Assembly: GCA_964646345.1 (NCBI GenBank)
Contig: CAZYDU010000002.1
Span: 38,802-102,801 of the forward strand
Length of the DNA: 64,000 nucleotides
Source of the DNA: an uncultured Lachnospiraceae bacterium
GTDB lineage: Bacteria > Bacillota > Clostridia > Christensenellales > UBA1242
Direction of reading: 5' to 3'
Positions 17,599 through 37,087 of this stretch are shown in pieces. Positions within the stretch are counted from its first letter, which is position 1. Every line of letters begins with the position of its first letter. The notes under the pieces were generated by a model. The model was not told where the DNA came from. It saw only the letters and a program-made list of their open reading frames with translations, and made no database searches. Made by a program: the position numbers and the translations under genes.

Positions 17599-17606
17599 AC
17601 TTCCCC

Positions 17607-22648: not shown

Positions 22649-22705
22649 TGGTGGGAAGAAGTGGATTCGAACCACTGAAGTCGAAAGACGACGGATTTAC
22701 AGTCC
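22649..22705 (-). repeat. attL: orphan 3' 57 nt of tRNA-Tyr (direct repeat copy 1)
   Basis: Identical to 37031-37087 at every base I compared. Sequences diverge immediately outside on both sides. Confidence 0.85.
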
Positions 22706-22724
22706 ACCTAAAAATTCGTACAAT

Positions 22725-22823
22725 CACTGATTTTATCAGCTTTTACAAGATTTTTGACACAATTTTTTGACACAATTTTTTTAAATTTATCGTACTTAAA
22801 CACTGATTTTTTCAGCATTTACA
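22725..22823 (+). repeat. Left-end repeat cluster (candidate recombinase arm sites)
   Basis: Two copies of CACTGATTTT(A/T)TCAGC(T/A)TTTACA at 22725-22747 and 22801-22823. Between them is a tandem pair of TGACACAATTTT at 22755 and 22768. Confidence 0.5.
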
Positions 22824-22896
22824 TACTTTGGTAAAAAACTCAAAACCATGATTTTTTACTTGTAATGTATTCATTATAAGCAATAATTATTAAAAA

Positions 22897-23040
22897 TCAA
22901 AAGCTTTTTTCGATTTTAACCCTATTCTTCTTTAATTCTTCCATTGAACATTCAAACATTGCACATTCTTTACAATAACATTCATATCTGTACTTTACAT
23001 ATTCTTCCGGGCTTAATTCCCATTCTTCTTCTAATTCCAT
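22897..23040 (-). CDS. Small Cys-rich ORF (47 aa) coupled to rep
   Basis: Own translation: MELEEEWELSPEEYVKYRYECYCKECAMFECSMEELKKNRVKIEKSF. A GGAG overlaps the rep stop. The ORF is below the track size cutoff. Confidence 0.35.
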   Translation of the reverse strand: MELEEEWELSPEEYVKYRYECYCKECAMFECSMEELKKNRVKIEKSF

Positions 23041-23051
23041 AATTTTATCTC

Positions 23052-24179
23052 CTAAAATACCGGGTCATCATCTATCGGCTCAAATATTTTCATTTGCTTT
23101 CTTAAATCTTCTGCAGGTACTCCTAAGTACTTTGTGTCAAGTTTCTCCCACATACTTGGCGGAAGTATTCGCTTCAATTCATCTAAAGATTTATCTGCTT
23201 TTTCCAATATAATCTTTTCTCGACTTTCATACCTTAATATAAAATGTAATCTCTTTTCAAAACCTTGCCATGATTTATAATCACTACTTTTTTGAAATGA
23301 ATACTGCTCAAGTGGAGACCAGTTCGAAGATATAAAGACCGTATTATAATTGCCAAACTTATTATTATATCTACAACTTAAATCTAATGGGTACGCATCA
23401 GCTAAATTTAAAAAGATTGAAAAATCTATTTGTGAACGGAACTCGTCAAATATTACTACATTCTGATTTCTAAACTCGTCAAAATAGTTTTTCTCATATT
23501 GCTTAACCCAATATGCTTTGCTGTTTCCAAAGTACTTAAATAAATTATAAGTTTTTCCAACTCTCGAGGGACCATAGATATATACACATATAAAATCTTG
23601 TTTTTGAACATCTTCCATATCGTGCCTTAATAACTCTTGTCTCATTCGTTGAATTTTATCCAGATTCTTAAAAAAATGATTTGGATATGCTTTACTAATT
23701 TCATAATCAGTTGCACCATTCCTTATCATTTCAAGTAAGTTTGTTATATCCGTCCTTGCTCTTTCTTCAGCAAATACTCCAAGTTCATAAGGTCCTGAGA
23801 CTCTTGTATCAGATTTTGTACAATAATCACGACATTGTACATTACTACCTTTTGCCTTTTCAATATGTGCTTTCGGAAATAATTTCTTTATTGTCGAAAA
23901 TCTTTTACCAATCGAAAATACTAAAAACATTTGAAAATGTTCGGTTTCTTTTTCCTTTCCCCTTTCTCTCTGCAGAGCTGAATATTTAAAATGTTCTAAA
24001 TGTTCAATATACTCACACATTTCTTCGTCAGACTCGGTTGAATTATTAATTGTTAACATATATCGTCTAGCTTGTGAATTTTCGTCAATAATTTCTTCTT
24101 CTTTAACTATTTCAGAATCAGCATTAATTTCTTCTTCTTTTTTATTTTCTGAAACAGCTTCAATTTTTTCTTCTTCCAT
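23052..24179 (-). CDS. rep: Rolling-circle replication initiator, HUH endonuclease plus SF3 helicase (CRESS-type Rep)
   Basis: Motif I YMLTINN (aa 40-46), motif II HFQMF (81-85), motif III YCTK (119-122). Walker A GPSRVGKT (203-210), Walker B VVIFDEF (241-247), motif C ISSN (283-286). Confidence 0.8.
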   Translation of the reverse strand: MEEEKIEAVSENKKEEEINADSEIVKEEEIIDENSQARRYMLTINNSTESDEEMCEYIEHLEHFKYSALQRERGKEKETEHFQMFLVFSIGKRFSTIKKLFPKAHIEKAKGSNVQCRDYCTKSDTRVSGPYELGVFAEERARTDITNLLEMIRNGATDYEISKAYPNHFFKNLDKIQRMRQELLRHDMEDVQKQDFICVYIYGPSRVGKTYNLFKYFGNSKAYWVKQYEKNYFDEFRNQNVVIFDEFRSQIDFSIFLNLADAYPLDLSCRYNNKFGNYNTVFISSNWSPLEQYSFQKSSDYKSWQGFEKRLHFILRYESREKIILEKADKSLDELKRILPPSMWEKLDTKYLGVPAEDLRKQMKIFEPIDDDPVF

Positions 24180-24217
24180 TCGTATTCCCCCTGTGTAAGA
24201 AATTTAATGAAATTTGA

Positions 24218-24472
24218 TTAAAATATAAATACAACCCCCAAAATTACATTTAACATTAAAATAATTAACTCAAAAATTAAATATATCTTTCTTCTAAACA
24301 CAACCGACTTAATTATTTTTAAAATCGTTATAATCAGGTTTAAAACCAAAACCCCAATCGCAAATGGACTAAGTAAAACCATTCTCACAGCTTCATTAAC
24401 CCCATATGCTCCGAATAATGGAAGAAACACCCAACATTCGAATATCAATAATAATATTTGAATTATAATCAT
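24218..24472 (-). CDS. Small membrane protein (84 aa, about 3 TM)
   Basis: ATG at 24472 with an AAGGAG RBS. The longer track ORF starts at a TTG inside the iteron array and is unlikely. Confidence 0.5.
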   Translation of the reverse strand: MIIIQILLLIFECWVFLPLFGAYGVNEAVRMVLLSPFAIGVLVLNLIITILKIIKSVVFRRKIYLIFELIILMLNVILGVVFIF

Positions 24473-24487
24473 ATATACTCCTTTTGT

Positions 24488-24603
24488 GCGACACAGTGTG
24501 ACTTTTGCGACACAGTGGCGACACAATGCGACACAGAGAAACGATTTTAAAAATCGGCTCTAAAGTTCGATAAAATAACCATTTACAAGAATTGTGCGAC
24601 ACA
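24488..24603 (-). repeat. Five iterons (plus strand GCGACACA; minus strand TGTGTCGC)
   Basis: Copies start at 24488, 24507, 24518, 24528 and 24596, all in the same orientation. The last one abuts the ori stem. Confidence 0.65.
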
Positions 24604-24604
24604 G

Positions 24605-24643
24605 TGACGCAGTTGCTAGGTAATACTACCCGCAACTGCGTCA
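24605..24643 (-). promoter_or_regulatory. Putative rolling-circle origin stem-loop with TAGTATTAC nonanucleotide
   Basis: Perfect 12-bp stem (24605-24616 / 24632-24643). The 15-nt loop reads GGGTAGTATTACCTA on the minus (rep-sense) strand. Confidence 0.7.
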
Positions 24644-24845
24644 AAAATTCTTTCGCACATTCTCTCTTTTTAACGACTTTCCAAGTCGTCCTAGTAAGCT
24701 TTCAGCTTATTATTAATAAGAGAAATCTTTTTCTCAACGCAAAAATTGCTCTTAAAAACCCTGTTTTTATCTTACGTATAAATTGCACATTGCACTTTCT
24801 CTCCAGGTTTTAGTGTAAAAAATAATCTTATTTTTAATTATCCTG

Positions 24846-24947
24846 TTGACTTTTCTCAAATCTTGCATATAATATTAAGTATCAAAGCGAAGAAATTCGC
24901 CATGCTGTTTCAGACAGCCAAAAGTGGAAGAAATTCCACTTTTTTTA
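24846..24947 (+). ncRNA. Candidate small RNA (promoter, three hairpins, T-run)
   Basis: TTGACT (24846), a 16-nt spacer, TATAAT (24868). Hairpins at 24887-24900, 24904-24918 and 24923-24940, followed by T7. The last hairpin could equally be the minus-strand terminator of 25015-25299. Confidence 0.3.
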
Positions 24948-25014
24948 TTGCAAATATTTTCCAATAAAAAAATAATGACGTTTCTTTATTTTCTTTTTAC
25001 CTATATCTTGTATC

Positions 25015-25299
25015 TTAGAAATATCTAACATTCTTTATTGGTTTTTTATTTACACCCGACCAACGGGAAAAATTTGTATCAAAATAAGGCAAAGCATAAG
25101 TATTTCCTACACGAACTTGTTTTATTTTCTTACGATTTATCTTTTTATCCCTATCTTCTAACGAAGTTACTACATTTACATCACACATTCCATTATTATT
25201 AACTTCACGTATATAAACATAATGTCCACCAGGTCGTGGAATACCAAGATATTTATTCTCTATGTACCCTATTTGGTTCTTTATTTTCTTATAATTCAT
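25015..25299 (-). CDS. Hypothetical small basic protein
   Basis: ORF inside the element operon. No recognised family. Confidence 0.45.
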   Translation of the reverse strand: MNYKKIKNQIGYIENKYLGIPRPGGHYVYIREVNNNGMCDVNVVTSLEDRDKKINRKKIKQVRVGNTYALPYFDTNFSRWSGVNKKPIKNVRYF

Positions 25300-25320
25300 A
25301 AGCTTTATCCCTTTATATTT

Positions 25321-25749
25321 TTATCCAAAATCACTATCAAACTCACTTTCTTCCTGTATCGGTTCAATATTTGCTACCTGCTTCTGAACTATTACTGCAG
25401 GAACTAAAATATCAGGTTTTTGCTCAGGCGGTTTTTCAGAACCTTTTTCGGGTTTCTTATCCGTTTCTTTTTGATCTTTCATTATCTTTTTCATTTTTGC
25501 CCATAACCTAGAATGAAACATTTTCCATATCCAATTATGTGGCATTGTTTCAAAAGCTGTACGGAGTTCCAACTCCCTTTTTTCTCTTTCAAAAAGGGGT
25601 TTTTTATAAAGCTTTGTATATTCTCTTATAGACTTTTCTACAAATTTTATAGACTTTTCCGGCAAAGCATTAAGTCCAAATGAATCAGATAATTTATCAT
25701 ATTCTCCATAAATAAAACTACTTAAATCAGAAAAATCGTCAAATTCCAT
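25321..25749 (-). CDS. Hypothetical protein
   Basis: ORF with a GGGGGA-type RBS, directly downstream of the Zot-like gene. Confidence 0.45.
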   Translation of the reverse strand: MEFDDFSDLSSFIYGEYDKLSDSFGLNALPEKSIKFVEKSIREYTKLYKKPLFEREKRELELRTAFETMPHNWIWKMFHSRLWAKMKKIMKDQKETDKKPEKGSEKPPEQKPDILVPAVIVQKQVANIEPIQEESEFDSDFG

Positions 25750-25775
25750 ATAAATCCCCCCTTTTCTTTATTTTA

Positions 25776-26615
25776 TCATGCTACATCATTAACTTTTTTC
25801 TTTAAATAACCGGCAGGTGCTATAAAGTAATTTTCATTATTAAACTTTGTAATACCTTCCATTGAAAATTGATAACCACTTTCAGTGAAATATTCATATT
25901 TCAATTTCAAATTTTTTGTATATGAAACATCATAAAAAGCAAGCTTATTAGAATGACTATCATAGAAATTAAAAACATTAACATTAGTTGAATATTCAAC
26001 AGTTTTTCCAAGGTCTGAGTTAGCACCACTTTCTTTTGCCATTTGATATTTTTCAGCTGTTTCACAAGACTCAAATTCATGTGTTTTCCAAGTAATTTTA
26101 ATAACCCTACCAAACTCATCTTTCTTAACATCTAGCTTATCTATTACTATAAATTTATCACATAAAGCTCGAATATTTACGTCTATGTTTGCTAACCTTT
26201 GAGCTGTTAAATAAATCTTATAATCGTTATGTCTATGAATTTGAAAAAATCCATAAACTTCTTTTCGTAAATACATGCTCAAACGACTATCAAAATAACG
26301 TTGAGCTTCATCTAAAAATATACTTGAACCAACAGGAAAAAATTTTGTTTCAAAAAACTCATTGGGTAGTCCAATTTCAAAACCACTTACTTTATATCTA
26401 CTCCACTTTTTATTGATTTTAAAATCATAATCAGCAAAACATAAATGTTTTTGTGGTGGAAGCTCTAAATCAGAATAACCAACACATCTTAAATGTTCTA
26501 TTTCTCGTTTTGCAATATAATAGTCTTTAACATTATAAACCATTGTTTCATGTTGAAAATTAGTTAATAAAGCGGTTTTTCCGCTTCCACACTTACCAAT
26601 AATTCCAATCATCAT
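25776..26615 (-). CDS. Zot / pI-like P-loop morphogenesis ATPase
   Basis: Walker A GKCGSGKT at the N-terminus, Walker B IFLDEAQRYF, then FQIHRHNDYKIYLTAQRLANIDVNIR. This matches the Zot-family HRH...D...TQ...IR pattern. Confidence 0.75.
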   Translation of the reverse strand: MMIGIIGKCGSGKTALLTNFQHETMVYNVKDYYIAKREIEHLRCVGYSDLELPPQKHLCFADYDFKINKKWSRYKVSGFEIGLPNEFFETKFFPVGSSIFLDEAQRYFDSRLSMYLRKEVYGFFQIHRHNDYKIYLTAQRLANIDVNIRALCDKFIVIDKLDVKKDEFGRVIKITWKTHEFESCETAEKYQMAKESGANSDLGKTVEYSTNVNVFNFYDSHSNKLAFYDVSYTKNLKLKYEYFTESGYQFSMEGITKFNNENYFIAPAGYLKKKVNDVA

Positions 26616-26746
26616 AATATTAAATTCTCCCTATGTTATTTTTTCTTTACGCCTTGATTTTTGAGAAAGTTTGAGTATAATAATATATAGAACAACTCAG
26701 CCGATAAGGCACATTCTAAGCGGCAACGCTACAAAGAGTTGTTTTT

Positions 26747-27085
26747 TTATTGCTTAATTTTTTTATTATACCTTTTAATTGATTTTCTTGTCTTATTAGA
26801 AAATCTAAAATTAGATAATTTTTCAGAACTAAATTGTTTTTCAGTCTGCCAATATGGTGGACTGATTTTTGTTTTTCTTCTATCACGAGTTAACTTATCC
26901 GGGTTTTCATCCAAAATATAATAATCAACGCCTTTAACATTCTTTGAATGAGTAATTAAATTTGCTTTATAACTATGATTATATTTTGCAGAAATATAAG
27001 CCGGATGCGCTTTTTTATCTTTACCCATATGATTAGGGTTAGTATCTAATCTAAACTCGTTTTTTCTAAGATATTTTTTACTCAA
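26747..27085 (-). CDS. Hypothetical small basic protein
   Basis: K/R-rich 112-aa ORF between the repeat protein and the Zot-like gene. Confidence 0.45.
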   Translation of the reverse strand: MSKKYLRKNEFRLDTNPNHMGKDKKAHPAYISAKYNHSYKANLITHSKNVKGVDYYILDENPDKLTRDRRKTKISPPYWQTEKQFSSEKLSNFRFSNKTRKSIKRYNKKIKQ

Positions 27086-27160
27086 TATTTTTCTCCTTAG
27101 TTAAAAATTAATTGTGGGTAGTCTGCTTTTAAATCGTTTCCCACTCGTGGATTTTGTCTT

Positions 27161-30007
27161 TTACTCTTTTACATAAATGTTTGATGTTTGGTCATTTTCT
27201 GAAAATAATGAAATAGCAAAAATATCAGAAGTGATATCAGTGGAACTAGTTAATAAAGAAATAGAAAGTTCTTTACCTATTAATTCACTATCACCTGAAC
27301 CTATAAACTCAATATTTGCAATAGTTTCGCCATTTTCATTTAATTCTGTAGACTTAATTTTCCAACATACATTCTCATTGAAAATATCTAAAATAGTTGT
27401 TTCAGTATATTTATTAAAACCAATAGAATTATTAATCTTAGAAATTAAATCATCTAAAGAAACATAGCCAAATTTATTATTAGAAATTAAATCATTATAA
27501 TTAGCTTTGATTGTAGGAGCTTCACTTATTCTAATTGAATAAACAGAACTATATTCATTAGTTAAAGGAAAATCAGAAGAAGTAATAAAATTCCCACCTT
27601 CATAAAACTGAACTTGAAAATCAATTTGCGAAACAGTTTCTGGAACTGTCCAAGTATATAATCCAGTATCACTATTAAAAGTATTAACTAGACCATTTGT
27701 TACTATTGAAAAATCAGCGGAATCTAGTTCATTGCATGAGAATGAGCAACCTTGAAAATAATAATTATATGAAATTTCATTAAATTCATAATGATTTAAT
27801 TCTTCATTCCATGTATAAAAATATATTCTCTTAAAATCAAAATCGTCTCTCATATCATAAACATAAATATATTTAGAAACATAGGTAATATAGTTATTTA
27901 AAATATTATCCGGTACTACGTTTTCTTCAGAAAAAGAATTTTCATATAGAACATAAGAACCTAAACCATTATCACTATAGTTTTTAAAAAGAGTACTATA
28001 AGTTTTACTACCATAAGTAACATAAGTAGTGGCAATAGACTCAAGACTATTTGAAGAAATATCGTCAGTTATAACCAATCTCTCAAATTCAATCTTATAA
28101 TGTTGAGTAGAATATTGACAAGCGACAACTATATCAGCTTTTACATTAGAAAATTTTAAAAGAACATAAGAATAATCTTTTTTATAATCTGAATAATTAA
28201 CATCAACATTTAAATTATTATCTTCAAAATTAAATTCATTTTCATTATAAGAGCAATTAAAAATCTCTAGATTATCATAAGCTGAAGATAATGAGCCTGT
28301 AGATGTTAAAGTTCCATTAAATGTAATCATGTGAGTTGTTTGGTCAAAACTTAATACATATGTAGAAGTTTTTTGAGAAGAACCGGGAATAGTATAAAGA
28401 ATATAAATTTTTGAAAGATATTCCCCAGCATTATAAGGTAAAATTAAAGAATAAACATTAGTATCTTCAATAACTTCTTTTTCACTTACAAAATCAGCTA
28501 TAGAACCTGTAGACTCACTTAAATTATTAATAGAACTAGTATAATTTGTTGAAGAAAAAACACTATAAAGACCTTTTCCTGTAGAGTCAGAATTATTATC
28601 GCCTATAGCAAAAGAATAGGTTGGTAATTTTTCAAACACTGCAATATATGTTACCTGTTCAGTTATAGCTGTTGTTTCTATGTCTTCAACTAAGTTTTCT
28701 CCGTCAACCGACCAACCTAAAAAGGTGTAACCTGTTTTTGTTGGTGCTTCAGGTAAAATTATATAATCATTCTTTTCTACGTTTTTAGAAAAATATACAA
28801 CATCATCTACCATAAACTGAACTAGTGGGTGCTTTTCATTCCAATAATAAACGTAAGATTTTTCAAGTATTTCTCGACTGGTCATATCTTCCGTTACTCC
28901 ATGAGAACTATATGCAACTACATAAACTCTCTTTGCGGTCTCAATATCCACTTCGTCTTCACTTTTTCCACTAATTGCTGAAGCAATAGAAATTATAAAC
29001 TTGTCGTTTGTTGCTCTAAAATTATCTTCGTAAACTCCTACTGCTGTATCATTCATTCCAAGATTTGGATAAATCCATAATTGTAAATCCTGGTCGGTTA
29101 ATAAGCTTGGGTCAGATGTATAATTTAAATAATTCCAACGTAAAGAAATTATTATTTCACTTACATCTTTTAGGTCATAAGGCAAGTCTTCTTTCGTTAA
29201 AATATTACCTGAATTATCATAATAATAAAGACTATCTAGACTACTATTATAGCTTGCTTCAGAAAGTGTTTTTGGGTTCATGGTGTCGAACTTTATTACA
29301 TATTTTGTAAATTCATAATTTTCTTTTATTGGATTAGAAAAAATAATTTTTTCGTCAAAATCCTGAATAAAATTAAAATCAGATGTATAAGTTACACCAT
29401 TATATGTTAAGCTTTCTCCAGCATTCAATTTAACATCTACCTGCAGGGCATTTACTTGCCATACTGCATAGTATTCAGTTTCAGCATTTTCAACAAGAAC
29501 TTCAGATAAATCTATAACATTTTCTCCGTCAACCGACCAACCTAGAAATTTATAGTTTGCACGTTTTGGCTCAGAAATTGTAAGTGTATCTAAGGTTTCG
29601 CCTTTAATATATCCATTTCTGCACACTAGCTCTTGACTATAGTTATTTACAGGAGTCTTTATGTTATAAAAGTTTACATAATTTAAATCTTCATAAATTC
29701 CGTATATTCTTTGGGAAAAACCAGTAGTTACTTTATTACCTTCAATTAAAGTTTTCCCGTCAAAAGAATAACCCATAAAACGCTTATCTTCAACTTCAGG
29801 TAAGTCAGCTAGTGTATACTCAGTACCTACAGGTATAACCACTTTATTAACAATTTCATTGTCTACCACTACAGATAAAGTAGCTGTATTTGACTCAGAT
29901 ACATATGTATCAGCAGTTGTAGATACATTTACTTTAAAATCATTTTTATCAAAATATGAATTCCACAATGCCACAGCTTCAGAACTGCCTTTTGTAGATA
30001 CTACCAT
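27161..30007 (-). CDS. Large surface/adsorption-type protein with Listeria-Bacteroides (Flg_new-type) repeats
   Basis: Repeated GY(T/K)FLGWSVDGEN...Y(I/Y)AV(F/W) modules, also visible as a DNA repeat near 28694 and 29519. The frame stays open for 97 more codons upstream, to 30298. Confidence 0.7.
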   Translation of the reverse strand: MVVSTKGSSEAVALWNSYFDKNDFKVNVSTTADTYVSESNTATLSVVVDNEIVNKVVIPVGTEYTLADLPEVEDKRFMGYSFDGKTLIEGNKVTTGFSQRIYGIYEDLNYVNFYNIKTPVNNYSQELVCRNGYIKGETLDTLTISEPKRANYKFLGWSVDGENVIDLSEVLVENAETEYYAVWQVNALQVDVKLNAGESLTYNGVTYTSDFNFIQDFDEKIIFSNPIKENYEFTKYVIKFDTMNPKTLSEASYNSSLDSLYYYDNSGNILTKEDLPYDLKDVSEIIISLRWNYLNYTSDPSLLTDQDLQLWIYPNLGMNDTAVGVYEDNFRATNDKFIISIASAISGKSEDEVDIETAKRVYVVAYSSHGVTEDMTSREILEKSYVYYWNEKHPLVQFMVDDVVYFSKNVEKNDYIILPEAPTKTGYTFLGWSVDGENLVEDIETTAITEQVTYIAVFEKLPTYSFAIGDNNSDSTGKGLYSVFSSTNYTSSINNLSESTGSIADFVSEKEVIEDTNVYSLILPYNAGEYLSKIYILYTIPGSSQKTSTYVLSFDQTTHMITFNGTLTSTGSLSSAYDNLEIFNCSYNENEFNFEDNNLNVDVNYSDYKKDYSYVLLKFSNVKADIVVACQYSTQHYKIEFERLVITDDISSNSLESIATTYVTYGSKTYSTLFKNYSDNGLGSYVLYENSFSEENVVPDNILNNYITYVSKYIYVYDMRDDFDFKRIYFYTWNEELNHYEFNEISYNYYFQGCSFSCNELDSADFSIVTNGLVNTFNSDTGLYTWTVPETVSQIDFQVQFYEGGNFITSSDFPLTNEYSSVYSIRISEAPTIKANYNDLISNNKFGYVSLDDLISKINNSIGFNKYTETTILDIFNENVCWKIKSTELNENGETIANIEFIGSGDSELIGKELSISLLTSSTDITSDIFAISLFSENDQTSNIYVKE

Positions 30008-30288
30008 ATCAGTAGAATAACGATTAAATCCGAATGTAAACGTTAATTCATCAGTTAATTTATAAACATTTCCTACATCATAAAAAGCATAATTATAAGT
30101 ACAAGTTAAATGATTGTTTGAATAATCTACAACTTTACATGGCTCGTCATTAACTAATACTTTATAGTTCTCATTTGAATCAAATTTTAAGCTTTTATCA
30201 GAGTGAAACTCAGCTTTATAAAGTGTATCATCAGAACCAGTTAAAACTACTTGGTCAAAGTCAAAATCTATATTTATTACATTATTAG

Positions 30289-30543
30289 TTATTTCAACTT
30301 ATTTGGTTTTATAATATCTTCAATTTTACCAAATATTCCACCTTCAGCGGTGTAATATTCATTTATTTTAATACCACTATACACACCCGAACAGCATATT
30401 AAAACTACACATAAACTAGCTACAATCATTCTGGAACCAGGTACTTTTATTAGAAGAACTACAACACCAATTATTAAGGCAATTAATAAAGAAAAGTTTA
30501 AAATGTCTTGAAATGAAATTCCAAATATCAACCAACTAAGCAT
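30289..30543 (-). CDS. Small membrane protein (84 aa)
   Basis: Two to three hydrophobic segments. Overlaps its upstream neighbour by 8 nt. Confidence 0.5.
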   Translation of the reverse strand: MLSWLIFGISFQDILNFSLLIALIIGVVVLLIKVPGSRMIVASLCVVLICCSGVYSGIKINEYYTAEGGIFGKIEDIIKPNKLK

Positions 30544-31843
30544 ATTCTTCTACCCCCTGTACTTTAAATTCTCCAAATGTATTTGTTTCAAAACCACCAA
30601 AGGTTATTCCACATTTATTCAGGTAATCGGTATCTATTTCTACTTGAATAATAATGTCATTAATGTAAGAGTCATAGTAGAATTTAAAATCAGTCTTTAA
30701 TGCAAATTTATAAACACCAACATCTTCAGTTGCAATTAATTCAAAATCTCTAATGTTTTCATTAAATTCAGCTTTTACAATGGACTTTCCATAAAGATAT
30801 GAACCGGTTTCTGCATCAGGATTAATATTTGCTGAACCATTCAACATTCCCATTAAACTTTCAGAAGATTTTGTCATGTCTCCATCATGCACATTAACTC
30901 GAATAATATAATAACTTTGGATTTCTTTTACTATTTTATTGTAATTATCCCCATCAAGAGATACTTTTGAATAACTTGAACCATCATACTCGTAATAATC
31001 GAAATAATCGCCAAAGTTAAAGATAATGTCTTGACTTGTACCTTTTTCTACACCACGAATTGAGTTGTAGAGAATTGTTGAAAAATAATTTAAGTCAAAT
31101 GATGCATATCCAGAATAACAACTATATGTATGTTTATTTAAAATTAAATAAGTTTGCGTAGAAACCTGTTCATAATAATCAACCTTGAATGTTTCATCGA
31201 GATTGTTTTTTACTTCTTTTTTTAAATCCATGTTATCGACAGAATAATAATAATCATAATAAGTTTTATCGCCTTTGAGTTTCATACCATAAAGTTTTTT
31301 ATTTTCTTCGTCACCAATTTGTATTCTAAAAAGAGAATCAGTATCAAGTGGACTTGCCATATCATTATTAATAGTAGTTTCAAATCCGTCAGCAGAAGCA
31401 TATTGAAATGAATTTAAATATTTAAAACTAGAATTTTGATATAAAAATGAATAACCGATAGTTTTTTCTTGAATTGGCCAACCTTTAGACCACTCCGACT
31501 CAGAACGTTTATCAAACCCAGTTCGATTAAAATAACTTAAGCTAAAATCTAAGCCTTTATCAGAATTTGCAACATATTGCACACCTTTCGAATAAAATGC
31601 ATTTTGGTCTTCGTCTCGCACATAATTAAAAACCACTTCAAATACATTATCATATAAATTAAGCTCTATAAATGGCTTCTTTTCTGTTGTTCCGTCAGCT
31701 TTCTTTATTTGCTGATACCCAATATTAAATGTTTGCGATACTATCTTATCCGGTGCTGTGTTAAGCATGTAAACATACCACACGTCTACACCTATTGCGA
31801 TAAATGATATAATCGCCATAAAAAATATTAAAAATTTCTTCAT
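30536..31843 (-). CDS. Hypothetical protein with N-terminal signal/anchor
   Basis: N-terminus MKKFLIFFMAIISFIAIGV, followed by a 400-aa Y/N/D-rich region. Confidence 0.5.
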   Translation of the reverse strand: MKKFLIFFMAIISFIAIGVDVWYVYMLNTAPDKIVSQTFNIGYQQIKKADGTTEKKPFIELNLYDNVFEVVFNYVRDEDQNAFYSKGVQYVANSDKGLDFSLSYFNRTGFDKRSESEWSKGWPIQEKTIGYSFLYQNSSFKYLNSFQYASADGFETTINNDMASPLDTDSLFRIQIGDEENKKLYGMKLKGDKTYYDYYYSVDNMDLKKEVKNNLDETFKVDYYEQVSTQTYLILNKHTYSCYSGYASFDLNYFSTILYNSIRGVEKGTSQDIIFNFGDYFDYYEYDGSSYSKVSLDGDNYNKIVKEIQSYYIIRVNVHDGDMTKSSESLMGMLNGSANINPDAETGSYLYGKSIVKAEFNENIRDFELIATEDVGVYKFALKTDFKFYYDSYINDIIIQVEIDTDYLNKCGITFGGFETNTFGEFKVQGVEEYA

Positions 31844-31908
31844 AGTTTCTCCTTTTCTTTGGATTTGAATTGACTAACTCGTCAGTGAATATACATCACT
31901 ATATTCAG

Positions 31909-31941
31909 AAAATAGCTAGAGTTTTTATCTAGCTATTTTTT
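31909..31941 (-). terminator. Hairpin terminator inside the element
   Basis: Stem AAAATAGCTAG/CTAGCTATTTT flanked by A/T runs, downstream of 31977-32435. Confidence 0.5.
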
Positions 31942-31976
31942 CGTATTTATTCATATTCCAAATGTTATATACTTTT

Positions 31977-32435
31977 TTATTTGCCTATATTTTCAAGTTG
32001 AGCTTTATATAAATTGTAATAATTAATTAAAGTTCTTCTTGATAATACGGATTTTGGGAAAAGTCGAATTGTTGAGCCGTCAGATAGTTCGTATAACATA
32101 CAAACATACACTCTTTCAATTTCCCCTTCTTCATTAATCTTTGGTTCTTCGATTAATGACTTGGTTTTAACAAAATCTTTTAAACCGGCATTCTTCATTG
32201 AAAGAAGCAAGTCATAAAAATTATCAGGGTCATTAAATTCTACAGTTACTCCATTAAATAAAGTAACAATGTATGGGTGTCTTGTACCATATTTTGACTT
32301 TATCTCGTGAAATTTTGCAGATTTAACAATGCAATTAATGTCTTCCCTAACAGTTAAATCCCTTTTACTTTCAGCTTCATTTACTGAATTTTTTGTTTCA
32401 ATTTCTGAAACATTTTCTACTACTTCGTTTTTCAT
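31977..32435 (-). CDS. Hypothetical protein
   Basis: 152-aa ORF with an AGGAG RBS. Confidence 0.45.
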   Translation of the reverse strand: MKNEVVENVSEIETKNSVNEAESKRDLTVREDINCIVKSAKFHEIKSKYGTRHPYIVTLFNGVTVEFNDPDNFYDLLLSMKNAGLKDFVKTKSLIEEPKINEEGEIERVYVCMLYELSDGSTIRLFPKSVLSRRTLINYYNLYKAQLENIGK

Positions 32436-32591
32436 AATTTTCTCCTACTTTTCGTTTATTTTTGATTTTAAGTAAAGGCTAGTTCCGGACCTATGCCGAT
32501 ACTTAATGGTATCATATACTCTAATAAATACAGGGAAATTAGAATATATGATTGGTAGTGGGTAGTATTTAAAGTGCCCCCACCAACATCA

Positions 32592-32774
32592 CTATTTCGT
32601 GCCTATTTTTGAGAAAAATGTTAAACCAATTTTTTCGAAAATATTAACATTTATCCAATCAGTTATATTTGGCAACCAGTTAAAAGCTTTACACAAGATT
32701 GCTACTAATGTTAAAACTAAAGCTATTAAAACTAGAGAACCTAGTATAATTAATATTCCTTTTAATACCTTCAT
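32592..32774 (-). CDS. Small single-TM protein (candidate virion coat protein)
   Basis: 60 aa with a strong GGGGGAG RBS and one long hydrophobic helix. Sits upstream of the structural block. Confidence 0.4.
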   Translation of the reverse strand: MKVLKGILIILGSLVLIALVLTLVAILCKAFNWLPNITDWINVNIFEKIGLTFFSKIGTK

Positions 32775-32821
32775 AACTCCCCCTTTATAACCAAATTGCT
32801 ATTGCAATCTAATTATTAAAA

Positions 32822-33019
32822 TTAATATCTACCCGGTCGTAATTCATTGATTTTTGAATTTACATCAGTTAAATTTGTATCATTAAAATTCTTTCTTATC
32901 CAATTAGATAAGCTTTCATAAGCTGTTTTCCAATCTTTAACTTGTATCATCAACTTACGTTTTTCAATATTACATTCATGTTTTAGAACTTCAATCTTTT
33001 CTTCAGCTGTTTGTTCCAT
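32822..33019 (-). CDS. Hypothetical small coiled-coil protein
   Basis: ORF overlapping its upstream neighbour by 17 nt. Confidence 0.35.
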   Translation of the reverse strand: MEQTAEEKIEVLKHECNIEKRKLMIQVKDWKTAYESLSNWIRKNFNDTNLTDVNSKINELRPGRY

Positions 33020-33224
33020 TATTAAGCTCCTTCATTAAATTTTTAACAATTTCAAAGGCATTTTGAAAGCCTTTGTCAAAATCAGTTTTAGTATCTAATT
33101 TTGAATAGAAATCAACTTTTTCAGTTAAGTTTCGGATAAAATAGTCCTGTTTTGCGTTTTTTATTCTAAAACATGATAATTCATGCTCTAAACTAATTAT
33201 TCTATTTTGTTGAGTAACACCCAT
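33003..33224 (-). CDS. Hypothetical small protein
   Basis: ORF with a GGGAG RBS. First gene after the structured intergenic region. Confidence 0.35.
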   Translation of the reverse strand: MGVTQQNRIISLEHELSCFRIKNAKQDYFIRNLTEKVDFYSKLDTKTDFDKGFQNAFEIVKNLMKELNNGTNS

Positions 33225-33506
33225 TTGTTTTTATCTCCCATTTTTTATTTTGAGCTGTCTCATCAGTAGTTATTTGCTCAATTCTAACTAGACAAGGGGA
33301 AGTTAGTTAAAAACCCCTTGTTTCGACTTAATTCCGTTGGCAGTTATGCTTCAATTCTTTAGGGCGAAGCAACCTTTTCAGCTGTAAAAATACCCCTGTA
33401 TAACATTAACGATTAAAAACTAATAAAAGGTTTATTATATTTTTATTTGGAGATAAAAAATAATGAAAATACCATACTTATAGTTACCTGTCAGCCACCA
33501 ACGGAG

Positions 33507-33764
33507 TTAATTGTATAAGTCAGGGTGATATGGTCTTGTTAAAAAATCATACATACCGTGGTAAAATTCACGCTTACCTTTAGAGAGTGTTATTCCTGAT
33601 TTGGTTTTTTTCAAATTCATGTCTGAAGCATATTCAGCACAAGTAATTCGAGTTCTTTCATTCTTGTAATAACCACTACTACCATACTTTTCCATGTTGT
33701 CATAAAAAACTTTTTCGCCAACTTTTAAACCAGAATAATATGCACTTGTTTTAGCCATAAGCAC
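33507..33764 (-). CDS. Hypothetical small protein
   Basis: ORF in the element, tightly packed against 33767-34060. Confidence 0.4.
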   Translation of the reverse strand: MLMAKTSAYYSGLKVGEKVFYDNMEKYGSSGYYKNERTRITCAEYASDMNLKKTKSGITLSKGKREFYHGMYDFLTRPYHPDLYN

Positions 33765-33766
33765 AC

Positions 33767-34060
33767 CTAACGTTTCTTTTTCTTTGCATTAAAACAATTA
33801 GCATTGTCTTTACCCCTATCCAGGTAACCAGCTCTATATGCTCTTTGAGCTTTAGTAAGCTTAATACCCTTTCCGTCTTTAGTACGTTTGGTTTCGTTCC
33901 TGTTAGTCTTAGCATAACCATGCTTAAGCTCTACTGCATACTTTCTTGATTTTTCATTAGGATTTAACAATATTACTACATTGCCTGTTTTTGGATTAAT
34001 CCAATCATGACCTTCTCCCGAATGAAATTTTGCAGGTTTTCCCTTTTTGTAATTTGACAT
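33767..34060 (-). CDS. Hypothetical small basic protein
   Basis: K/R-rich 97-aa ORF with a GGGGGG-type RBS. Confidence 0.4.
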   Translation of the reverse strand: MSNYKKGKPAKFHSGEGHDWINPKTGNVVILLNPNEKSRKYAVELKHGYAKTNRNETKRTKDGKGIKLTKAQRAYRAGYLDRGKDNANCFNAKKKKR

Positions 34061-34117
34061 AAAATTATTTCCCCCCCTTATTTGATTTTTATATTCACAG
34101 CTTTTAGCTGAAAATAT

Positions 34118-34438
34118 CTAATAAAATTTACAACCCTTTATATTCTTATATTTTTCCTTATTTGCTTTAGATAACTTATTAGATGCCGATATTAAATCAT
34201 AAACAACTCTTTCACCGGTGTCTAAATCATTAACAATATGTGTTACTTTTTTATTTAAATTACCTTTTGTTGGAGAAGTTTGATAACTTGTTGAAAATCT
34301 GCCTTTATGTGGTTTATCTAATTCAATACTTCTATCCCACCTACCGGTATCATGCGGAGCTTCAACAATTTTCTTTCCTTTTAAATAAAACTTACCATTT
34401 CTATCTCTATCATAGATTGTTTGTAAAAATATACCCAT
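34118..34438 (-). CDS. Hypothetical small basic protein
   Basis: First gene of the long leftward operon. Confidence 0.4.
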   Translation of the reverse strand: MGIFLQTIYDRDRNGKFYLKGKKIVEAPHDTGRWDRSIELDKPHKGRFSTSYQTSPTKGNLNKKVTHIVNDLDTGERVVYDLISASNKLSKANKEKYKNIKGCKFY

Positions 34439-34511
34439 ATTTTCAATCCTTTCCCCTTGACTTTATTTTTTTAATTTTGATATCATATTTTCAACAAGGG
34501 GGATTAAAAAT

Positions 34512-34742
34512 ATGAATATAGAACAAGCTTTAAAAAATGCCAAAGAATTTATTGATTTTAACTTAGGACAAAATAGAATTTCAAATTTTAACCTAAATGA
34601 ACCAATTATTTATGTAGCAAGCAAAAAAATTTTAGAAGACGACCCAGATTTAAAAATCTTTAAATCTAAATTAAATAAAATCGGTTATCAAATCTCGTCT
34701 ACAGAACAATCAAACAAATTTACAATCAATAAAATTCTCTAA
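34512..34742 (+). CDS. Hypothetical small protein
   Basis: GGGGGA RBS, with the terminator hairpin 34742-34770 immediately after. Confidence 0.4.
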   Translation: MNIEQALKNAKEFIDFNLGQNRISNFNLNEPIIYVASKKILEDDPDLKIFKSKLNKIGYQISSTEQSNKFTINKIL

Positions 34743-34771
34743 GTAACAGCTTTTGCTGTTACTATTTTTAT

Positions 34772-35005
34772 TTAATATTCAAAATCTGTTGTAACTTTTC
34801 GAGTTCCTTTTATTGCAGACCAATCTCCATAAACATCATTTGTTTTTGAACAAAAAAATACTTTATCCGAAAAATTATAATCATCTTTTATATAAATTGT
34901 CCTACTTGGTTTTCCATTTTTATCAAGTAATTTAAAATGTGTTCCTTTAGGTAAAAACCTTAATTCACAAGTTCCAATAAAACTTTTACTATGTTTCTTA
35001 ATCAT
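34772..35005 (-). CDS. Hypothetical small protein divergent from the XRE regulator
   Basis: 77-aa ORF with an AGGAGCAAAG RBS region. Confidence 0.4.
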   Translation of the reverse strand: MIKKHSKSFIGTCELRFLPKGTHFKLLDKNGKPSRTIYIKDDYNFSDKVFFCSKTNDVYGDWSAIKGTRKVTTDFEY

Positions 35006-35028
35006 ATATCTTTGCTCCTTTTTTATTG

Positions 35029-35145
35029 AATTTTAGATTTATATTCTATATTTACAATTAAAATATAGACAACTATTCTATTTTTGTCAAATAAAATTAG
35101 AATATATTTCTATTTTTTTTTAAAAAATTAGATTTTATTGAAAAT
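35029..35145. promoter_or_regulatory. Divergent promoter/operator region of the XRE regulator
   Basis: Three direct copies of AA(T/A)(T/A)TTAGA(T/A)TT(A/T)TAT-like sequence start near 35029, 35094 and 35125. There is also a 9-bp inverted repeat TCTATATTT/AAATATAGA (35045-35069). Confidence 0.4.
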
Positions 35146-35186
35146 GCAAAAAAAAATATATAATATCTACTTAGGAGATAAAAAAA

Positions 35187-35510
35187 ATGGAAATAAACCA
35201 AAATCTAAAAAAAATAAGAAATCAAAATAAAATAACTCAAAAAGAATTAGCAGAAAAATCAGGTGTTCCATATGCAAATTACAACAAATATGAAACAACA
35301 ACAACAATTCCAGATATTGAAACACTAATAAAATTAGCTAATTTTTACAACATCTCGCTAGATTATTTAGTGGGAAGAAAATTCGGAAACGATATCGGTT
35401 TTCTAACCGACGACCAATTCCAAAACTTAAAAATTATTCTTTCACTATCTGAAAAAAATCAATATAAAGTGTTTGGCTATGCCCTATCACTTTTACAAAA
35501 TCAAAATTAA
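35187..35510 (+). CDS. XRE-family (Cro/CI-type) HTH regulator
   Basis: ITQKELAEKSGVPYANYNKYE...LIKLANFYNISLDYLVGR is the classic HTH_3 pattern. Confidence 0.85.
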   Translation: MEINQNLKKIRNQNKITQKELAEKSGVPYANYNKYETTTTIPDIETLIKLANFYNISLDYLVGRKFGNDIGFLTDDQFQNLKIILSLSEKNQYKVFGYALSLLQNQN

Positions 35511-35613
35511 ATGAGAAAATAATCAACTAAACCACCCTATTGAAAATCTAAACAATTAGTTATATAATACCTTAACCACTTTAGTGGAATAAAAATTAAG
35601 GAGTTATATAAAA

Positions 35614-35679
35614 ATGAGTAATGAAGAAATTAGGCAAAAAATTGCCGAAAATTTTTATATAACACAACTATTCAACTAG
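35614..35679 (+). CDS. Mini-ORF (21 codons) with strong RBS upstream of the integrase
   Basis: AAGGAG at 35598-35603 and ATG at 35614. The -1 frame is open from 35634 into the integrase ATG. Confidence 0.25.
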   Translation: MSNEEIRQKIAENFYITQLFN

Positions 35680-35879
35680 AAACTAAATTAACAAACATTC
35701 AACAAGAACTAAATAAGCTAGAAGTTGAAACTAACCAATGTATTAATGCTGTTGCACTACTACAAGGCTATTTTCGGGCTAAATTATCAGAAGAAAACAA
35801 ATCAGATAAAAAGATAAACAAAGATAAATCTAAAGAAAAAAGTGTCAACATAAAACAGCAAAAAAGGAGCGATGTTGAC

Positions 35880-36875
35880 ATGAAATATATATCTTATAGA
35901 CTATCCGATAACAGATATATCGGAAGAAAAACAATAAATAAAAAACAAATTTCCGTTTACGGAAAAACACAAAAAGAGTGTTTAAATAAATTAAAACAAG
36001 CTATAGATAAATTTTATCAGCCTACACTATTGATTGAACAAAAACCTAAAAGTAAAACATTAATTGATTATTTTAATGAATGGTATACTCAAAATAAAGA
36101 ACCTTTTATTTCTGAAGGAACTAAAAAAGACATCATGCTTGTAAAATCTAAAATTGAACCACTACATAACTTAGCAATTAATAAAATAAATAAAACAATA
36201 ATTTTTGACTTTTTACAGACTCTTGAAAATAACCGAAGTAAAGAAAAAGTAATTTTATATTTAAAAGCAGTATTCAAATCAGCTATTTTAGATAATGAAA
36301 TAAAAGACAATCCTTTTAATAATTTAAAAACTGCACCTAGAATAATAAAAACAAAACCCGCATTTACTTATGAAGAACAAAAGAAAATAATAAAATTAAT
36401 CCAAAATTCCCCACTCAAACCAATTATTTTAATTTATCTTGTTACTGGAATGAGAAAAAATGAATTTAACTTTACAAGCATAGAAAAAGATATTGATTTT
36501 AAAACAAATATCTTAAAAGCGGTTAATTTAAAAGGTAGAAATAAAATTACAAGGTATAAGCAAATTAAACTTAATAAACAAGCAATAAGTCTTATAATGA
36601 ATAATTTAGACGTAATTCACAAATATAATTCAGAAACAACATATAGGGAATTTAATGAGTTATTAAAAATAAATAATATAAATGGTTCAATAGTTACCTG
36701 TAGACACACATTTGCAACAAATTGCTTTTATTTAGGAAAACCCGAATTATTAATATCTAGAGAAATGGGACATTCAAAAAGTCAAATAACAAAAGATGTA
36801 TACACTGATATTGACTATAATTTATCTAAAGAAAAGATTATTAAATTATATAATAATTTATATAATTTAGACTAA
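35880..36875 (+). CDS. int: Tyrosine site-specific integrase
   Basis: N-terminal arm-binding-type domain (RYIGRKTINKKQISVYGKTQKECLNKL). Catalytic residues: R (TGMRKNE), HxxR (CRHTFAT), H (GHS) and Y (DVYTD). Confidence 0.9.
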   Translation: MKYISYRLSDNRYIGRKTINKKQISVYGKTQKECLNKLKQAIDKFYQPTLLIEQKPKSKTLIDYFNEWYTQNKEPFISEGTKKDIMLVKSKIEPLHNLAINKINKTIIFDFLQTLENNRSKEKVILYLKAVFKSAILDNEIKDNPFNNLKTAPRIIKTKPAFTYEEQKKIIKLIQNSPLKPIILIYLVTGMRKNEFNFTSIEKDIDFKTNILKAVNLKGRNKITRYKQIKLNKQAISLIMNNLDVIHKYNSETTYREFNELLKINNINGSIVTCRHTFATNCFYLGKPELLISREMGHSKSQITKDVYTDIDYNLSKEKIIKLYNNLYNLD

Positions 36876-36881
36876 AAATTT

Positions 36882-37017
36882 TGACACAATTTCTGACACA
36901 GTTTTTTAAGATTTTACTTAATATTTGTTACAAAATCTTATTTTTTGTAACAGAGAATAAACAAAAAATATATAACAATAAAAAAAGTTGTAAACACTGA
37001 ATTTTCCAGCATTTACA
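36882..37017 (+). repeat. Right-end repeat cluster (candidate recombinase arm sites)
   Basis: TGACACAATTT at 36882 and TGACACAGTTT at 36894. CACTGAATTTTCCAGCATTTACA at 36995-37017 lies inside a GTTGTAAA/TTTACAAC hairpin. Confidence 0.5.
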
Positions 37018-37030
37018 ACCCCAAAACATA

Positions 37031-37087
37031 TGGTGGGAAGAAGTGGATTCGAACCACTGAAGTCGAAAGACGACGGATTTACAGTCC
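37031..37087 (-). repeat. attR: direct repeat copy 2 (3' part of the intact tRNA-Tyr)
   Basis: Identical to 22649-22705. Confidence 0.85.

Follow-up and report, generated by a model that had tools for sequence, protein, structure and literature searches.

The stretch of DNA analysed here (the window) comprises 64,000 nucleotides from an uncultured Lachnospiraceae bacterium (GenBank assembly GCA_964646345.1, contig CAZYDU010000002.1, positions 38,802 to 102,801 of the forward strand). A 14.4-kb mobile element, which occupies positions 22649 to 37087, sits in the tRNA-Tyr gene of this low-GC, gut-type Firmicute and carries a tyrosine integrase, a Zot-type ATPase and a Rep protein of the type found in circular Rep-encoding single-stranded DNA (CRESS-DNA) viruses. 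The host sequence has about 30% GC. The genes that flank the element include dtd, pheST, obg, ctsR-mcsB-clpC, an ABC-F gene, polA, floA and mreB; since all of them are housekeeping genes, the setting is the chromosome of a Firmicute. The following features mark the boundaries.

22617..22648, minus strand: native terminator of the tRNA operon, outside the element and abutting the orphan tRNA fragment (13-bp stem and U-run straight after the CCA; dG -14.2, z -8.1)
22649..22705, minus strand: left att core, copy 1 of the direct repeat, an orphan 3' part (57 nt) of tRNA-Tyr, identical to 37031-37087
35880..36875, plus strand: tyrosine integrase (Pfam PF00589, Phage_integrase; PHROG 1 at 1e-32)
37031..37116, minus strand: intact tRNA-Tyr(GTA), the 3' 57 nt of which (37031-37087) form the right att core, copy 2 of the direct repeat (alignment, ARAGORN, Rfam)

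End-to-end alignment of the two repeat copies gave identity over all 57 bp, and the match ends on either side. According to ARAGORN and Rfam, tRNA-Tyr(GTA) occupies 37031-37116 of the minus strand, where it is the last (3'-most) gene of a cluster of six tRNAs, Pro-Met-Asp-Phe-Thr-Tyr. Because these coordinates overlap 37031-37087, the repeat corresponds to positions 30-86 of the tRNA, from the anticodon stem to the encoded CCA. The integrase, whose PF00589 match lies above the curated cut-off, ends 155 nt from the repeat. An initial annotation, made from the DNA alone, had described identical ends derived from the 3' part of tRNA-Tyr, an orphan fragment still lying beside the native terminator of the tRNA operon, flanks of core genes and an integrase next to the tRNA; all four descriptions were borne out.

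Public assemblies were queried with the exact dtd protein, and the query returned five Logan contigs from sibling SRA runs. Two of them, L002 and L004, carry the empty site: they run from dtd through the hairpin of 22617-22648, which lies directly 3' of an intact tRNA-Tyr, and through the repeat into the 5' part of that gene (...ACAGTCCGTTGCATTTGGCC), and their first 70 nt equal positions 37100-37031 of the window. The contig L001 is an empty site by just one base past the repeat. The contig L003 passes from the repeat into the element (...ACAGTCCACCTAAAAATTCG) and thus has the occupied junction. Among the runs, SRR14160743, SRR14160765 and SRR14160763 are carriers of the element, and SRR14160747, SRR14160758 and SRR14160769 have the empty site. 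The empty-site contigs match the flank of the window at 7302 of 7302 and 10562 of 10564 bases, that is, with 99.98-100% identity across 7-10 kb in the longer contigs L001 and L002. The empty allele expected from the initial annotation therefore exists, and because empty and occupied alleles occur in one strain background, the element is mobile now or was so recently. We regard its integration and mobility as practically certain. A further Logan contig of 14,386 bp, from another run of the same series, spans 22676-37060, i.e. the interior and 30 nt of each repeat, and differs from the window by six single-nucleotide polymorphisms (SNPs) and one indel. Because it ends 30 nt into each repeat, as expected from the k=31 graph of an integrated copy, it is uninformative on circularity.

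The replication module lies at the left end of the element.

23052..24179, minus strand: Rep with a HUH (HUQ-type) endonuclease and a superfamily 3 (SF3) helicase domain, pCRESS2 family (Pfam Viral_Rep and RNA_helicase)
24488..24610, minus strand: five GCGACACA(G/A)TG iterons, presumed Rep-binding sites (direct-repeat family D1)
24605..24643, minus strand: predicted rolling-circle origin, a perfect 12-bp hairpin with TAGTATTAC (24620-24628) in its loop (z -5.0)

Rep matches Viral_Rep (PF02407, 1e-13) and RNA_helicase (PF00910, 7e-8), both above the curated cut-offs. An alignment of 26 homologues contains the motifs I (LTINNP), II (EHFQ, a HUQ variant) and III (YCxK), Walker A and B, motif C and the conserved Arg. 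The Rep profile matches the full-length Rep of porcine circovirus 2 (7lar) over both domains with an E value of 3.6e-35, and it also matches the endonuclease domains of nanoviruses and further CRESS-DNA viruses. The nonamer in the loop of the hairpin is the origin sequence of circoviruses and nanoviruses. On the Rep strand, 34 of 36 Zot loci and 40 of 50 other loci with a related Rep (74/86) have a hairpin whose loop contains (T/A)AGTATTAC, as do two circular virome genomes, bajarodino virus 13 and 74, which are discussed below. The hairpin usually lies 50-170 nt upstream of Rep; the stem sequences vary while the nonamer is constant, and the iteron word makes up the hairpin stems of relatives. 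The fact that the nonamer hairpin is kept across the 86 related loci despite differing stems supports a functional origin. From these sequences it is very probable that Rep and the origin drive rolling-circle replication. A second TAGTATTAC at 10620-10628 lies within obg and was dismissed as a chance match (0.45 are expected per window).

The C-terminus of Rep (23052-23075) is acidic. A tip of the form [DE][LIVMP][PV][FW] is present in 39 of 120 homologues, most commonly as DDDLPF, and the Rep of the window ends in DDDPVF. This tip resembles the C-terminal tail of the bacterial single-stranded-DNA-binding protein (SSB), so that host proteins with affinity for the SSB tail may be recruited by it.

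The second gene on which the interpretation depends is that of the ATPase.

25776..26615, minus strand: Zot/pI-type P-loop ATPase, short and without a transmembrane helix (Pfam Zot, PHROG 197)

Its match to Zot (PF05707) scores 35.5 bits, with a cut-off of 20.3 (E value 9e-9), and PHROG 197 is matched at 2e-16. The Pfam domain is detected in all but one of 49 close homologues. A profile search of 1.8 billion representatives found 259 clusters at E <= 1e-10, nearly all of them of 240-300 amino acids (aa). The AlphaFold2 (AF2) model of the protein (pLDDT 82, pTM 0.80) has its best fold matches in 2r2a, a crystal structure of the N-terminal domain of Zot from a Neisseria filamentous prophage (E 1.8e-10), and in models of Inoviridae Zot proteins in BFVD. 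The transmembrane domain (TMD) is missing in 34 of 37 genomic homologues and in all three bajarodino Zot proteins (3/3), which makes its absence a property of the whole lineage.

Between the ATPase and the integrase we find the candidates for a structural block.

27161..30543, minus strand: giant surface protein, 1127 aa when intact, with an N-terminal membrane anchor and Flg_new/List_Bact repeats (Pfam Flg_new; frameshift at about 30297-30299)
30536..31843, minus strand: 435-aa protein with an N-terminal transmembrane (TM) or signal segment, upstream of the giant gene (hydropathy; no family match)
32592..32774, minus strand: 60-aa single-TM protein, the best candidate for a major coat protein (one predicted TM; small-protein family confined to Zot loci)

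By hydropathy, TM segments occur in only four proteins of the element: a 102-aa open reading frame (ORF) next to the origin, the first 84 aa of the giant protein, the N-terminus of the 435-aa protein and the 60-aa protein. The family of small one-TM proteins to which the latter belongs was found in 22 of 36 Zot loci versus none of 50 Zot-less loci. Its members have a basic N-terminus, one helix and then an L(V/I)xEW(K/Q)xWFG-like motif; other examples are L011 2443-2730, L015 5678-5953 and L019 4329-4592. A small, highly hydrophobic alpha-helical major coat protein is a hallmark of inoviruses (PMC13595969). Relatives of the element have proteins of 427-476 aa in the position of the 435-aa protein and comparable proteins of 740-1127 aa in place of the giant one, which we consider a candidate adsorption protein.

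The initial annotation had spoken of a giant repeat protein. Its repeats amount to only about three of the Flg_new type, matched in the ORF 27161-30007 (minus strand), and the copy in the window is split by a 1-nt deletion. The gene is uninterrupted (1127 aa) on the Logan contig SRR14160743_15805. At 30289-30310 (minus strand) the window reads CCAAATAAGTTG, whereas the Logan contig reads CCAAATAAAGTTG; a run of three A is shortened to two. The deletion ends the protein after 82 residues and leaves two ORFs in place of one, an anchor ORF of 84 aa and another of 948 aa. The difference in the A-run could be a mutation that truly inactivates the gene, reflect phase variation at this site or have arisen as an error of assembly. 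Because the deletion cuts the giant protein directly after its membrane anchor, the window copy as it stands is probably unable to make infectious particles.

One may go further and regard the window copy as a decaying, non-infectious remnant that may still excise and replicate, a view which is compatible with any of the other readings of the element. The truncation fits this view, the more so as the Logan copy, which otherwise differs by just the six SNPs, is intact; all other ORFs of the window copy are nevertheless intact and identical or near-identical to those of the Logan copy, and a difference in so short a homopolymer could come from assembly or sequencing. The presence of empty and occupied alleles in near-identical backgrounds also indicates recent activity. 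Together, these points make decay doubtful as an account of the window copy.

Elements of this type are not restricted to the window. A large protein database contains at least 150 homologues of Rep, some of them on chromosomal contigs of up to 463 kb. When one genome of each species was scanned with the Rep profile, 79 loci were obtained, nearly all in Clostridia, with a best match of 49% identity. The carriers belong to Lachnospiraceae, Oscillospiraceae, Acutalibacteraceae and Christensenellales and include the cultured hosts Roseburia inulinivorans, Pseudoflavonifractor and Clostridium rectalis; a few loci are from Izemoplasma or Erysipelotrichaceae. Cultured hosts such as R. inulinivorans DSM 16841 have elements of the Zot-less class described below, whereas the hosts of the Zot-bearing relatives are represented in this set by metagenome-assembled genomes. 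Of the 36 loci closest by Rep, a set that includes repeats of one element from several sources, 32 extend far enough upstream, and 30 of these contain Zot. The same gene order recurs in relatives down to about 43% Rep identity: integrase (on the opposite strand), helix-turn-helix (HTH) regulator, small ORFs, a 430-470-aa protein, a 740-1127-aa protein with Flg_new or leucine-rich repeats, small ORFs, a Zot-like protein of 270-310 aa, a 120-140-aa protein and Rep. Several relatives adjoin tRNA genes. Judged by this shared gene content, the element type is a lineage and not a one-off chimera. On one contig of a metagenome-assembled genome (L021), two Zot-like genes (8366-9211 and 16928-17773) and three giant-like ORFs lie within 10 kb, which suggests either a pair of adjacent, related elements or a duplication event.

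The relative L008 (Rep 61% identical; 73% DNA identity in the Zot region) is on a contig that is circularly permuted with respect to the window. Its order is Zot, origin, Rep, four small ORFs, a tRNA 3'-end fragment (GGGTTCGAGTCCCCGAAGGTCCACCA), integrase, HTH, early genes and structural genes, with the giant gene divided between the contig ends. The tRNA fragment lies about 100 nt past the integrase stop codon. The interval from Rep to the integrase contains no complete tRNA and no recognised host gene; its four short ORFs are without family match, and one of them is a homologue of a 94-aa protein of the window. Such a gene order is as would be expected for an episomal circle or a tandem copy. 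Other contigs of relatives with lengths of 11-15 kb proved to be integrated copies.

The relatives also include a different class of elements. At 26 loci with distant Reps (30-35% identity), Rep directly follows the gene of an FtsK/SpoIIIE-like ATPase of about 250 aa and is itself followed by an integrase of the Tn916 type. These loci, one of which is L056 8268-12381 from R. inulinivorans DSM 16841, have no Zot and no structural block. This layout fits the published categories of integrative and mobilizable elements (IMEs) and of pCRESS2 'integrated plasmids'. Indeed, L056 is RosInu-E1 (NZ_ACFY01000152) and L045 is MolHR2-E1 (NZ_JRFF01000028), both listed as pCRESS2. We assign the window Rep to pCRESS2 by profile grouping, because the scan with its profile recovers these two listed members. 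As far as these sequences go, one Rep-origin cassette is paired with two ATPase modules, Zot or FtsK/TcpA.

This pairing raises the question whether the window element is a virus at all. It could instead be a non-viral integrated plasmid or mobilizable element in which Rep is the initiator and/or the relaxase, the Zot-like ATPase moves or segregates DNA, conjugative spread possibly depends on a helper, and the giant surface protein serves cell contact or surface exclusion. Kazlauskas 2019 (PMC6668415) interpreted pCRESS1-3 as integrated plasmids, which encode FtsK-like ATPases together with surface proteins of the Sec10/PgrA kind. According to that study, inovirus Reps have no helicase domain, and homologues of viral structural proteins are missing from all pCRESS elements; PF02407 Reps accompanied by TcpA have been treated as IME relaxases ('Rel_PF02407'; Coluzzi 2017, Guedon 2017). 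The pCRESS2 elements and Rel_PF02407 IMEs share with the window element the Rep family, the origin type, a tyrosine integrase and the frequent use of tRNA targets. They differ in that they carry the FtsK/TcpA-like ATPase of about 250 aa and no Zot, small-TM family or giant protein. In the 26 loci that ATPase occupies the exact place of Zot; the ATPase of the window, however, is a Zot by curated profile and by fold, and hhalign of the window Zot family against the FtsK-like class aligned the Walker A region only (28 columns, 75% probability); Pfam gave no match to FtsK_SpoIIIE. Zot also travels with a small-TM and large envelope block that is missing from the FtsK-class elements, and scans of the element ORFs with Pfam, PHROG and NCBIfam found no relaxase accessory, type IV secretion system or coupling-protein gene. 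A plasmid would agree with the result that no known coat protein was recognised. Against it, relatives exist as circles of 9-10 kb in faecal virome data. Taken together, these results make a plasmid or IME an unlikely explanation of the element.

The initial annotation had not recognised the combination of integrase, Zot and CRESS-type Rep as a described phage group. Its anatomy of the element stands: the insertion in tRNA-Tyr, the Zot module (accepted by the curated profile and by the folds of 2r2a and Inoviridae Zot), the HUH+SF3 Rep (profiles above cut-off, full motif set) and the TAGTATTAC origin (nonamer in the loop of a 12-bp hairpin on the Rep strand). The claim of novelty does not, since such elements are already present as Rep family iPF_00203 of Roux 2019, as bajarodino virus 13 and 74, as pCRESS2 and in the supplement that lists HugHat-E1. 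The pairing is already catalogued; it has never been analysed or characterised.

Roux 2019 (PMC6813254) lists the inovirus Rep family iPF_00203 with 56 sequences as 'RCR + helicase', Viral_Rep, remarks on an 'S3H motif typical of eukaryotic ssDNA viruses', and describes inoviruses as freely exchanging both integrases and replication modules. The iPF_00203 inoviruses are, like the window element, integrated elements anchored on a Zot/pI gene, with a Viral_Rep protein that has HUH motifs and a C-terminal S3H. We liken the two on the basis of a remark in a figure legend and a table row, and the pI proteins of that study have TMDs whereas the window Zot has none. In supplementary file 2 of Kazlauskas 2019 (PMC6668415), the contig with the pCRESS2 element HugHat-E1 (Hungatella hathewayi) is listed with a Zot gene (CUP05435.1, match to PHA00012 'I assembly protein'), which goes unmentioned in the main text.

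Close parallels are two circular faecal-virome genomes filed as Inoviridae (INPHARED), bajarodino virus 13 (9,273 nt) and bajarodino virus 74 (10,183 nt; GenBank PQ006184 and PQ006121, respectively). As in the window, a short TMD-less Zot is directly followed by a Rep with Viral_Rep and RNA_helicase domains (32% identical to that of the window), and the TAGTATTAC hairpin is present, there about 160 nt upstream of Rep. In contrast to the window element they are smaller and have an rve-type transposase in place of the tyrosine integrase, and their other genes are not detectably similar. A third genome, bajarodino virus 12, encodes the closest Zot (30% identity) together with an integrase and a repressor; a Rep of the window type was not detectable in it.

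The inoviruses of Enterocloster (Microbiome 2023, PMC10061712) are reported to be secreted; quantitative PCR of DNase-protected pI DNA was performed on supernatants of four strains including E. citroniae, and transmission electron microscopy (TEM) on E. bolteae and E. clostridioformis 455. Like the window element, they are integrated, as prophages of gut Lachnospiraceae, and the one of E. citroniae, the sole one whose Zot we checked, encodes an integrase and a Zot that is short and TMD-less. With 7-8.4 kb these inoviruses are smaller, the E. citroniae inovirus has a G8P-like coat protein, its Zot is only weakly related to that of the window (E 4e-4), and their Reps are either rolling-circle initiators without a reported helicase match, which we read as Rep_trans-like, or similar to the A protein of phiX/G4. 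The same strain of E. citroniae carries the pCRESS2 element CloCit-E1, and we considered whether this is the secreted inovirus. The two are different, as the Rep of the inovirus is phiX/G4 A-like. Because this Zot is also short and without TMD, we treat the missing helix as a difference from pI of the Ff type and not as an argument against a phage. By this analogy, the TMD criterion for pI may fail for inoviruses of Gram-positive gut bacteria.

A virus need not be filamentous, and a TMD-less ATPase might also act in a pleomorphic or membrane-derived particle like that of a plasmavirus or pleolipovirus, with three anchored envelope components. Weaker fold matches of the Zot model to FtsK/HerA packaging ATPases (B204 of Sulfolobus turreted icosahedral virus, STIV) and to an ORF of Acholeplasma plasmavirus L2 (E about 1e-6) are consistent with this idea, yet the top fold and sequence matches are to inovirus Zot. 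The N-terminal anchors of three envelope-type proteins, the charge layout of the coat candidate, which is unlike that of pVIII, and the occurrence of some relatives in Izemoplasma and Erysipelotrichaceae genomes would also agree with it. The host of the window element, however, encodes MreB and looks like a walled Firmicute, which makes budding unlikely, and the Enterocloster inoviruses, with TEM of two strains and a short TMD-less Zot in E. citroniae, are reported to be secreted. A non-filamentous virus is therefore a very improbable explanation.

In the cyclic gene order of Ff, replication genes are followed by small proteins, a small hydrophobic protein, a large adsorption-type protein and pI, and the order in the window is the same. 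The inoviruses Ff, CTXphi and Pf also share with the element the Zot/pI ATPase and the location of nearly all genes on one strand; they differ in a pI with a TMD, Reps without a helicase domain (Kazlauskas 2019), the use of a secretin and the polarity of pVIII. With the replication modules of Circoviridae and Nanoviridae the element has in common the HUQ motif II, the YCxK motif III, the SF3 helicase and the nonamer hairpin beside iterons; unlike these viruses it lacks a gene for a jelly-roll capsid, has about 7 times their genome size, lives in a bacterial host, where a tyrosine recombinase integrates it into the chromosome, and carries a Zot module. No capsid family match was found among its proteins in Pfam, PHROGs or NCBIfam. 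Members of Cressdnaviricota have genomes of about 2-6 kb with a jelly-roll capsid gene beside rep, and by its size of 14.4 kb as well as by the capsid the element is not one of them.

We conclude, with a probability of about 0.7, that a low-GC Bacillota host here carries a temperate prophage which is inovirus-like (Tubulavirales-type) and has a replication module of the pCRESS2 family. This is consistent with the co-occurrence, in many Clostridia genomes, of the Zot ATPase with the small one-TM protein, an anchored protein of about 440 aa and the giant adhesin-like protein. That intact copies produce filamentous particles is somewhat less certain, and from the gene set we consider it fairly probable.

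Several observations weigh against the prophage interpretation. The Zot protein lacks the TM helix, no hydrophobic 19-mer exceeding 0.89, whereas Roux 2019 (PMC6813254) required one to two TMDs in a genuine pI. The N-terminus of the coat candidate is basic and its relatives often have a long acidic C-terminal tail, the reverse of pVIII with its acidic N-terminus and basic C-terminus, and no protein of the element matches a known inovirus coat, pIII, pVI or ssDNA-binding family in Pfam, PHROGs or NCBIfam. The Rep-origin cassette is common to IME-like elements too, the pCRESS1-3 elements have been described as integrated plasmids, and the window copy is frameshifted in the giant gene. A scan of IMG/VR with the Rep profile gave just distant, small contigs of eukaryotic CRESS or nanovirus type (22-34% identity), and a scan of the same database with Zot found no relatives. 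Finally, the bajarodino genomes are metagenomic circles, and our literature search found no paper that describes them.

If the element is a prophage of this kind, its life cycle might proceed as follows. The integrase would excise a circle of 14,382 bp (14,383 bp if the giant gene is intact). Rep would then bind the iterons (GCGACACAGTG), nick the coding-sense strand inside the nonamer, presumably at TAGTATT|AC, and carry out rolling-circle synthesis with the help of its own helicase domain. The resulting single strand would be handed to the Zot ATPase at the membrane and extruded, to be coated by the small TM protein, with the giant Flg_new protein as the adsorption tip. No secretin would be needed because the host has no outer membrane.

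The remaining features of the element concern recombination and control at the two ends and small proteins.

22722..22811, no strand: attP arm repeats on the Rep side, TGACACAATTT twice (22751-22780) and AAACACTGAxTTTT-like motifs (22722, 22796), also found on the integrase-side arm; putative function
36878..37022, no strand: attP arm on the integrase side, TGACACA(A/G)TTT twice (36878-36905) and a AAACACTGAATTTT motif (36990); putative recombinase sites
35187..35510, plus strand: HTH_3 (Cro/CI-type) regulator, presumed repressor (Pfam HTH_3 1e-17; PHROG 8/4/3 repressor families)
35006..35186, no strand: control region from which the HTH gene and the long minus-strand operon diverge (35090..35062, minus strand, as the best promoter-like site)
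34512..34742, plus strand: 76-aa ORF, followed by a terminator-like hairpin (ORF list)
32822..35005, minus strand: block of small early ORFs (65, 73, 85, 97, 106 and 77 aa; several strongly basic) (ORF list; no Pfam, PHROG or NCBIfam match)
31977..32435, minus strand: 152-aa protein (in 12 related loci; 4 close database homologues)
26747..27085, minus strand: 112-aa very basic protein (net +19) (ORF list; a 112-aa ORF at the same place in L162)
25321..25749, minus strand: 142-aa protein directly downstream of Zot (an ORF of 120-143 aa holds this place in relatives; no family match)
25015..25299, minus strand: 94-aa basic protein (net +12) (homologue in L008)
24218..24526, minus strand: membrane protein with three TM segments between the origin and Rep (TM prediction; the 102-aa ORF, probably translated from an internal Met, about 84 aa; no family match)
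22897..23040, minus strand: 47-aa Cys-rich ORF downstream of Rep (ORF list; called as a gene on the Logan contig too; no family match)

In the reconstructed attP site, TGACACA(A/G)TTT is present in four copies, of which each arm has two, and AAACACTGAxTTTT in three. A hairpin of 18 pairs with a T-run lies at 37022..36984 (minus strand), inside the element and just downstream of the intact tRNA-Tyr; it may stand in for the native terminator, which the integration has shifted 14 kb away. The promoter-like site of the control region (TTGACA-17-TATATT, 11/12) is identified by consensus match alone. An HTH gene adjoins the integrase in relatives as well. In the relative L167 (1398-2006), the regulator beside the integrase combines HTH with Peptidase_S24 (CI/LexA type), a hint that some members of the lineage are induced through the SOS response; the regulator of the window has the HTH only.

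The 3-TM protein may be a membrane partner of the TMD-less ATPase or of Rep. L008 has an 88-aa homologue in the same position (3232-3498), and the gene caller used for the Logan contig overlooked the gene. The 152-aa protein was considered as the hoped-for ssDNA-binding protein; it has four close homologues only, and its AF2 model, with a pLDDT of 51, is unsuitable for a fold search. The family of the 97-aa early ORF is present in 15 loci, and the 142-aa protein has an acidic C-terminus (...EFDSDFG). The small ORFs and the proteins of 435, 152, 142, 112 and 94 aa have no match in PHROGs, Pfam or NCBIfam, and comparison of the element proteins with one another detected no paralogy. In the flanking chromosome, an ordinary T-box leader (7856-8066) lies upstream of pheS.

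The result refines and does not overturn current views, as module exchange among inoviruses and bacterial relatives of CRESS Reps were already established. The element provides a cleanly bounded, mobile example of a group so far known from catalogue entries, and it ties together the catalogue of cryptic inoviruses, the scenario of a pCRESS plasmid origin of CRESS-DNA viruses and the IMEs of Firmicutes with rolling-circle relaxases, three fields whose papers make no reference to one another in this respect. It is also of broader interest that bacterial elements strictly conserve the circovirus nonamer, that Zot is TMD-less and that the coat candidate is unusual. We see an even chance that the Zot-bearing pCRESS2 elements are ssDNA phages of Gram-positive gut bacteria, filamentous or at least particle-forming, which make up a clade of family level and replicate by means of a circovirus-type Rep with its helicase and the TAGTATTAC origin. 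In that case, bona fide bacterial viruses use CRESS-type replication modules, contrary to the statements that the Reps of prokaryotic ssDNA viruses have no helicase and that pCRESS elements have no virus genes. The Rep-origin cassette would then move back and forth between Zot-bearing phages and TcpA-bearing mobilizable elements, and particle assembly would be unlike that of Ff in that pI lacks the TMD and the coat protein has its charge polarity reversed. A culturable carrier would offer a bacterial system for the study of a circovirus-type Rep with its origin and could show whether replicons of this kind become packaged as phage.

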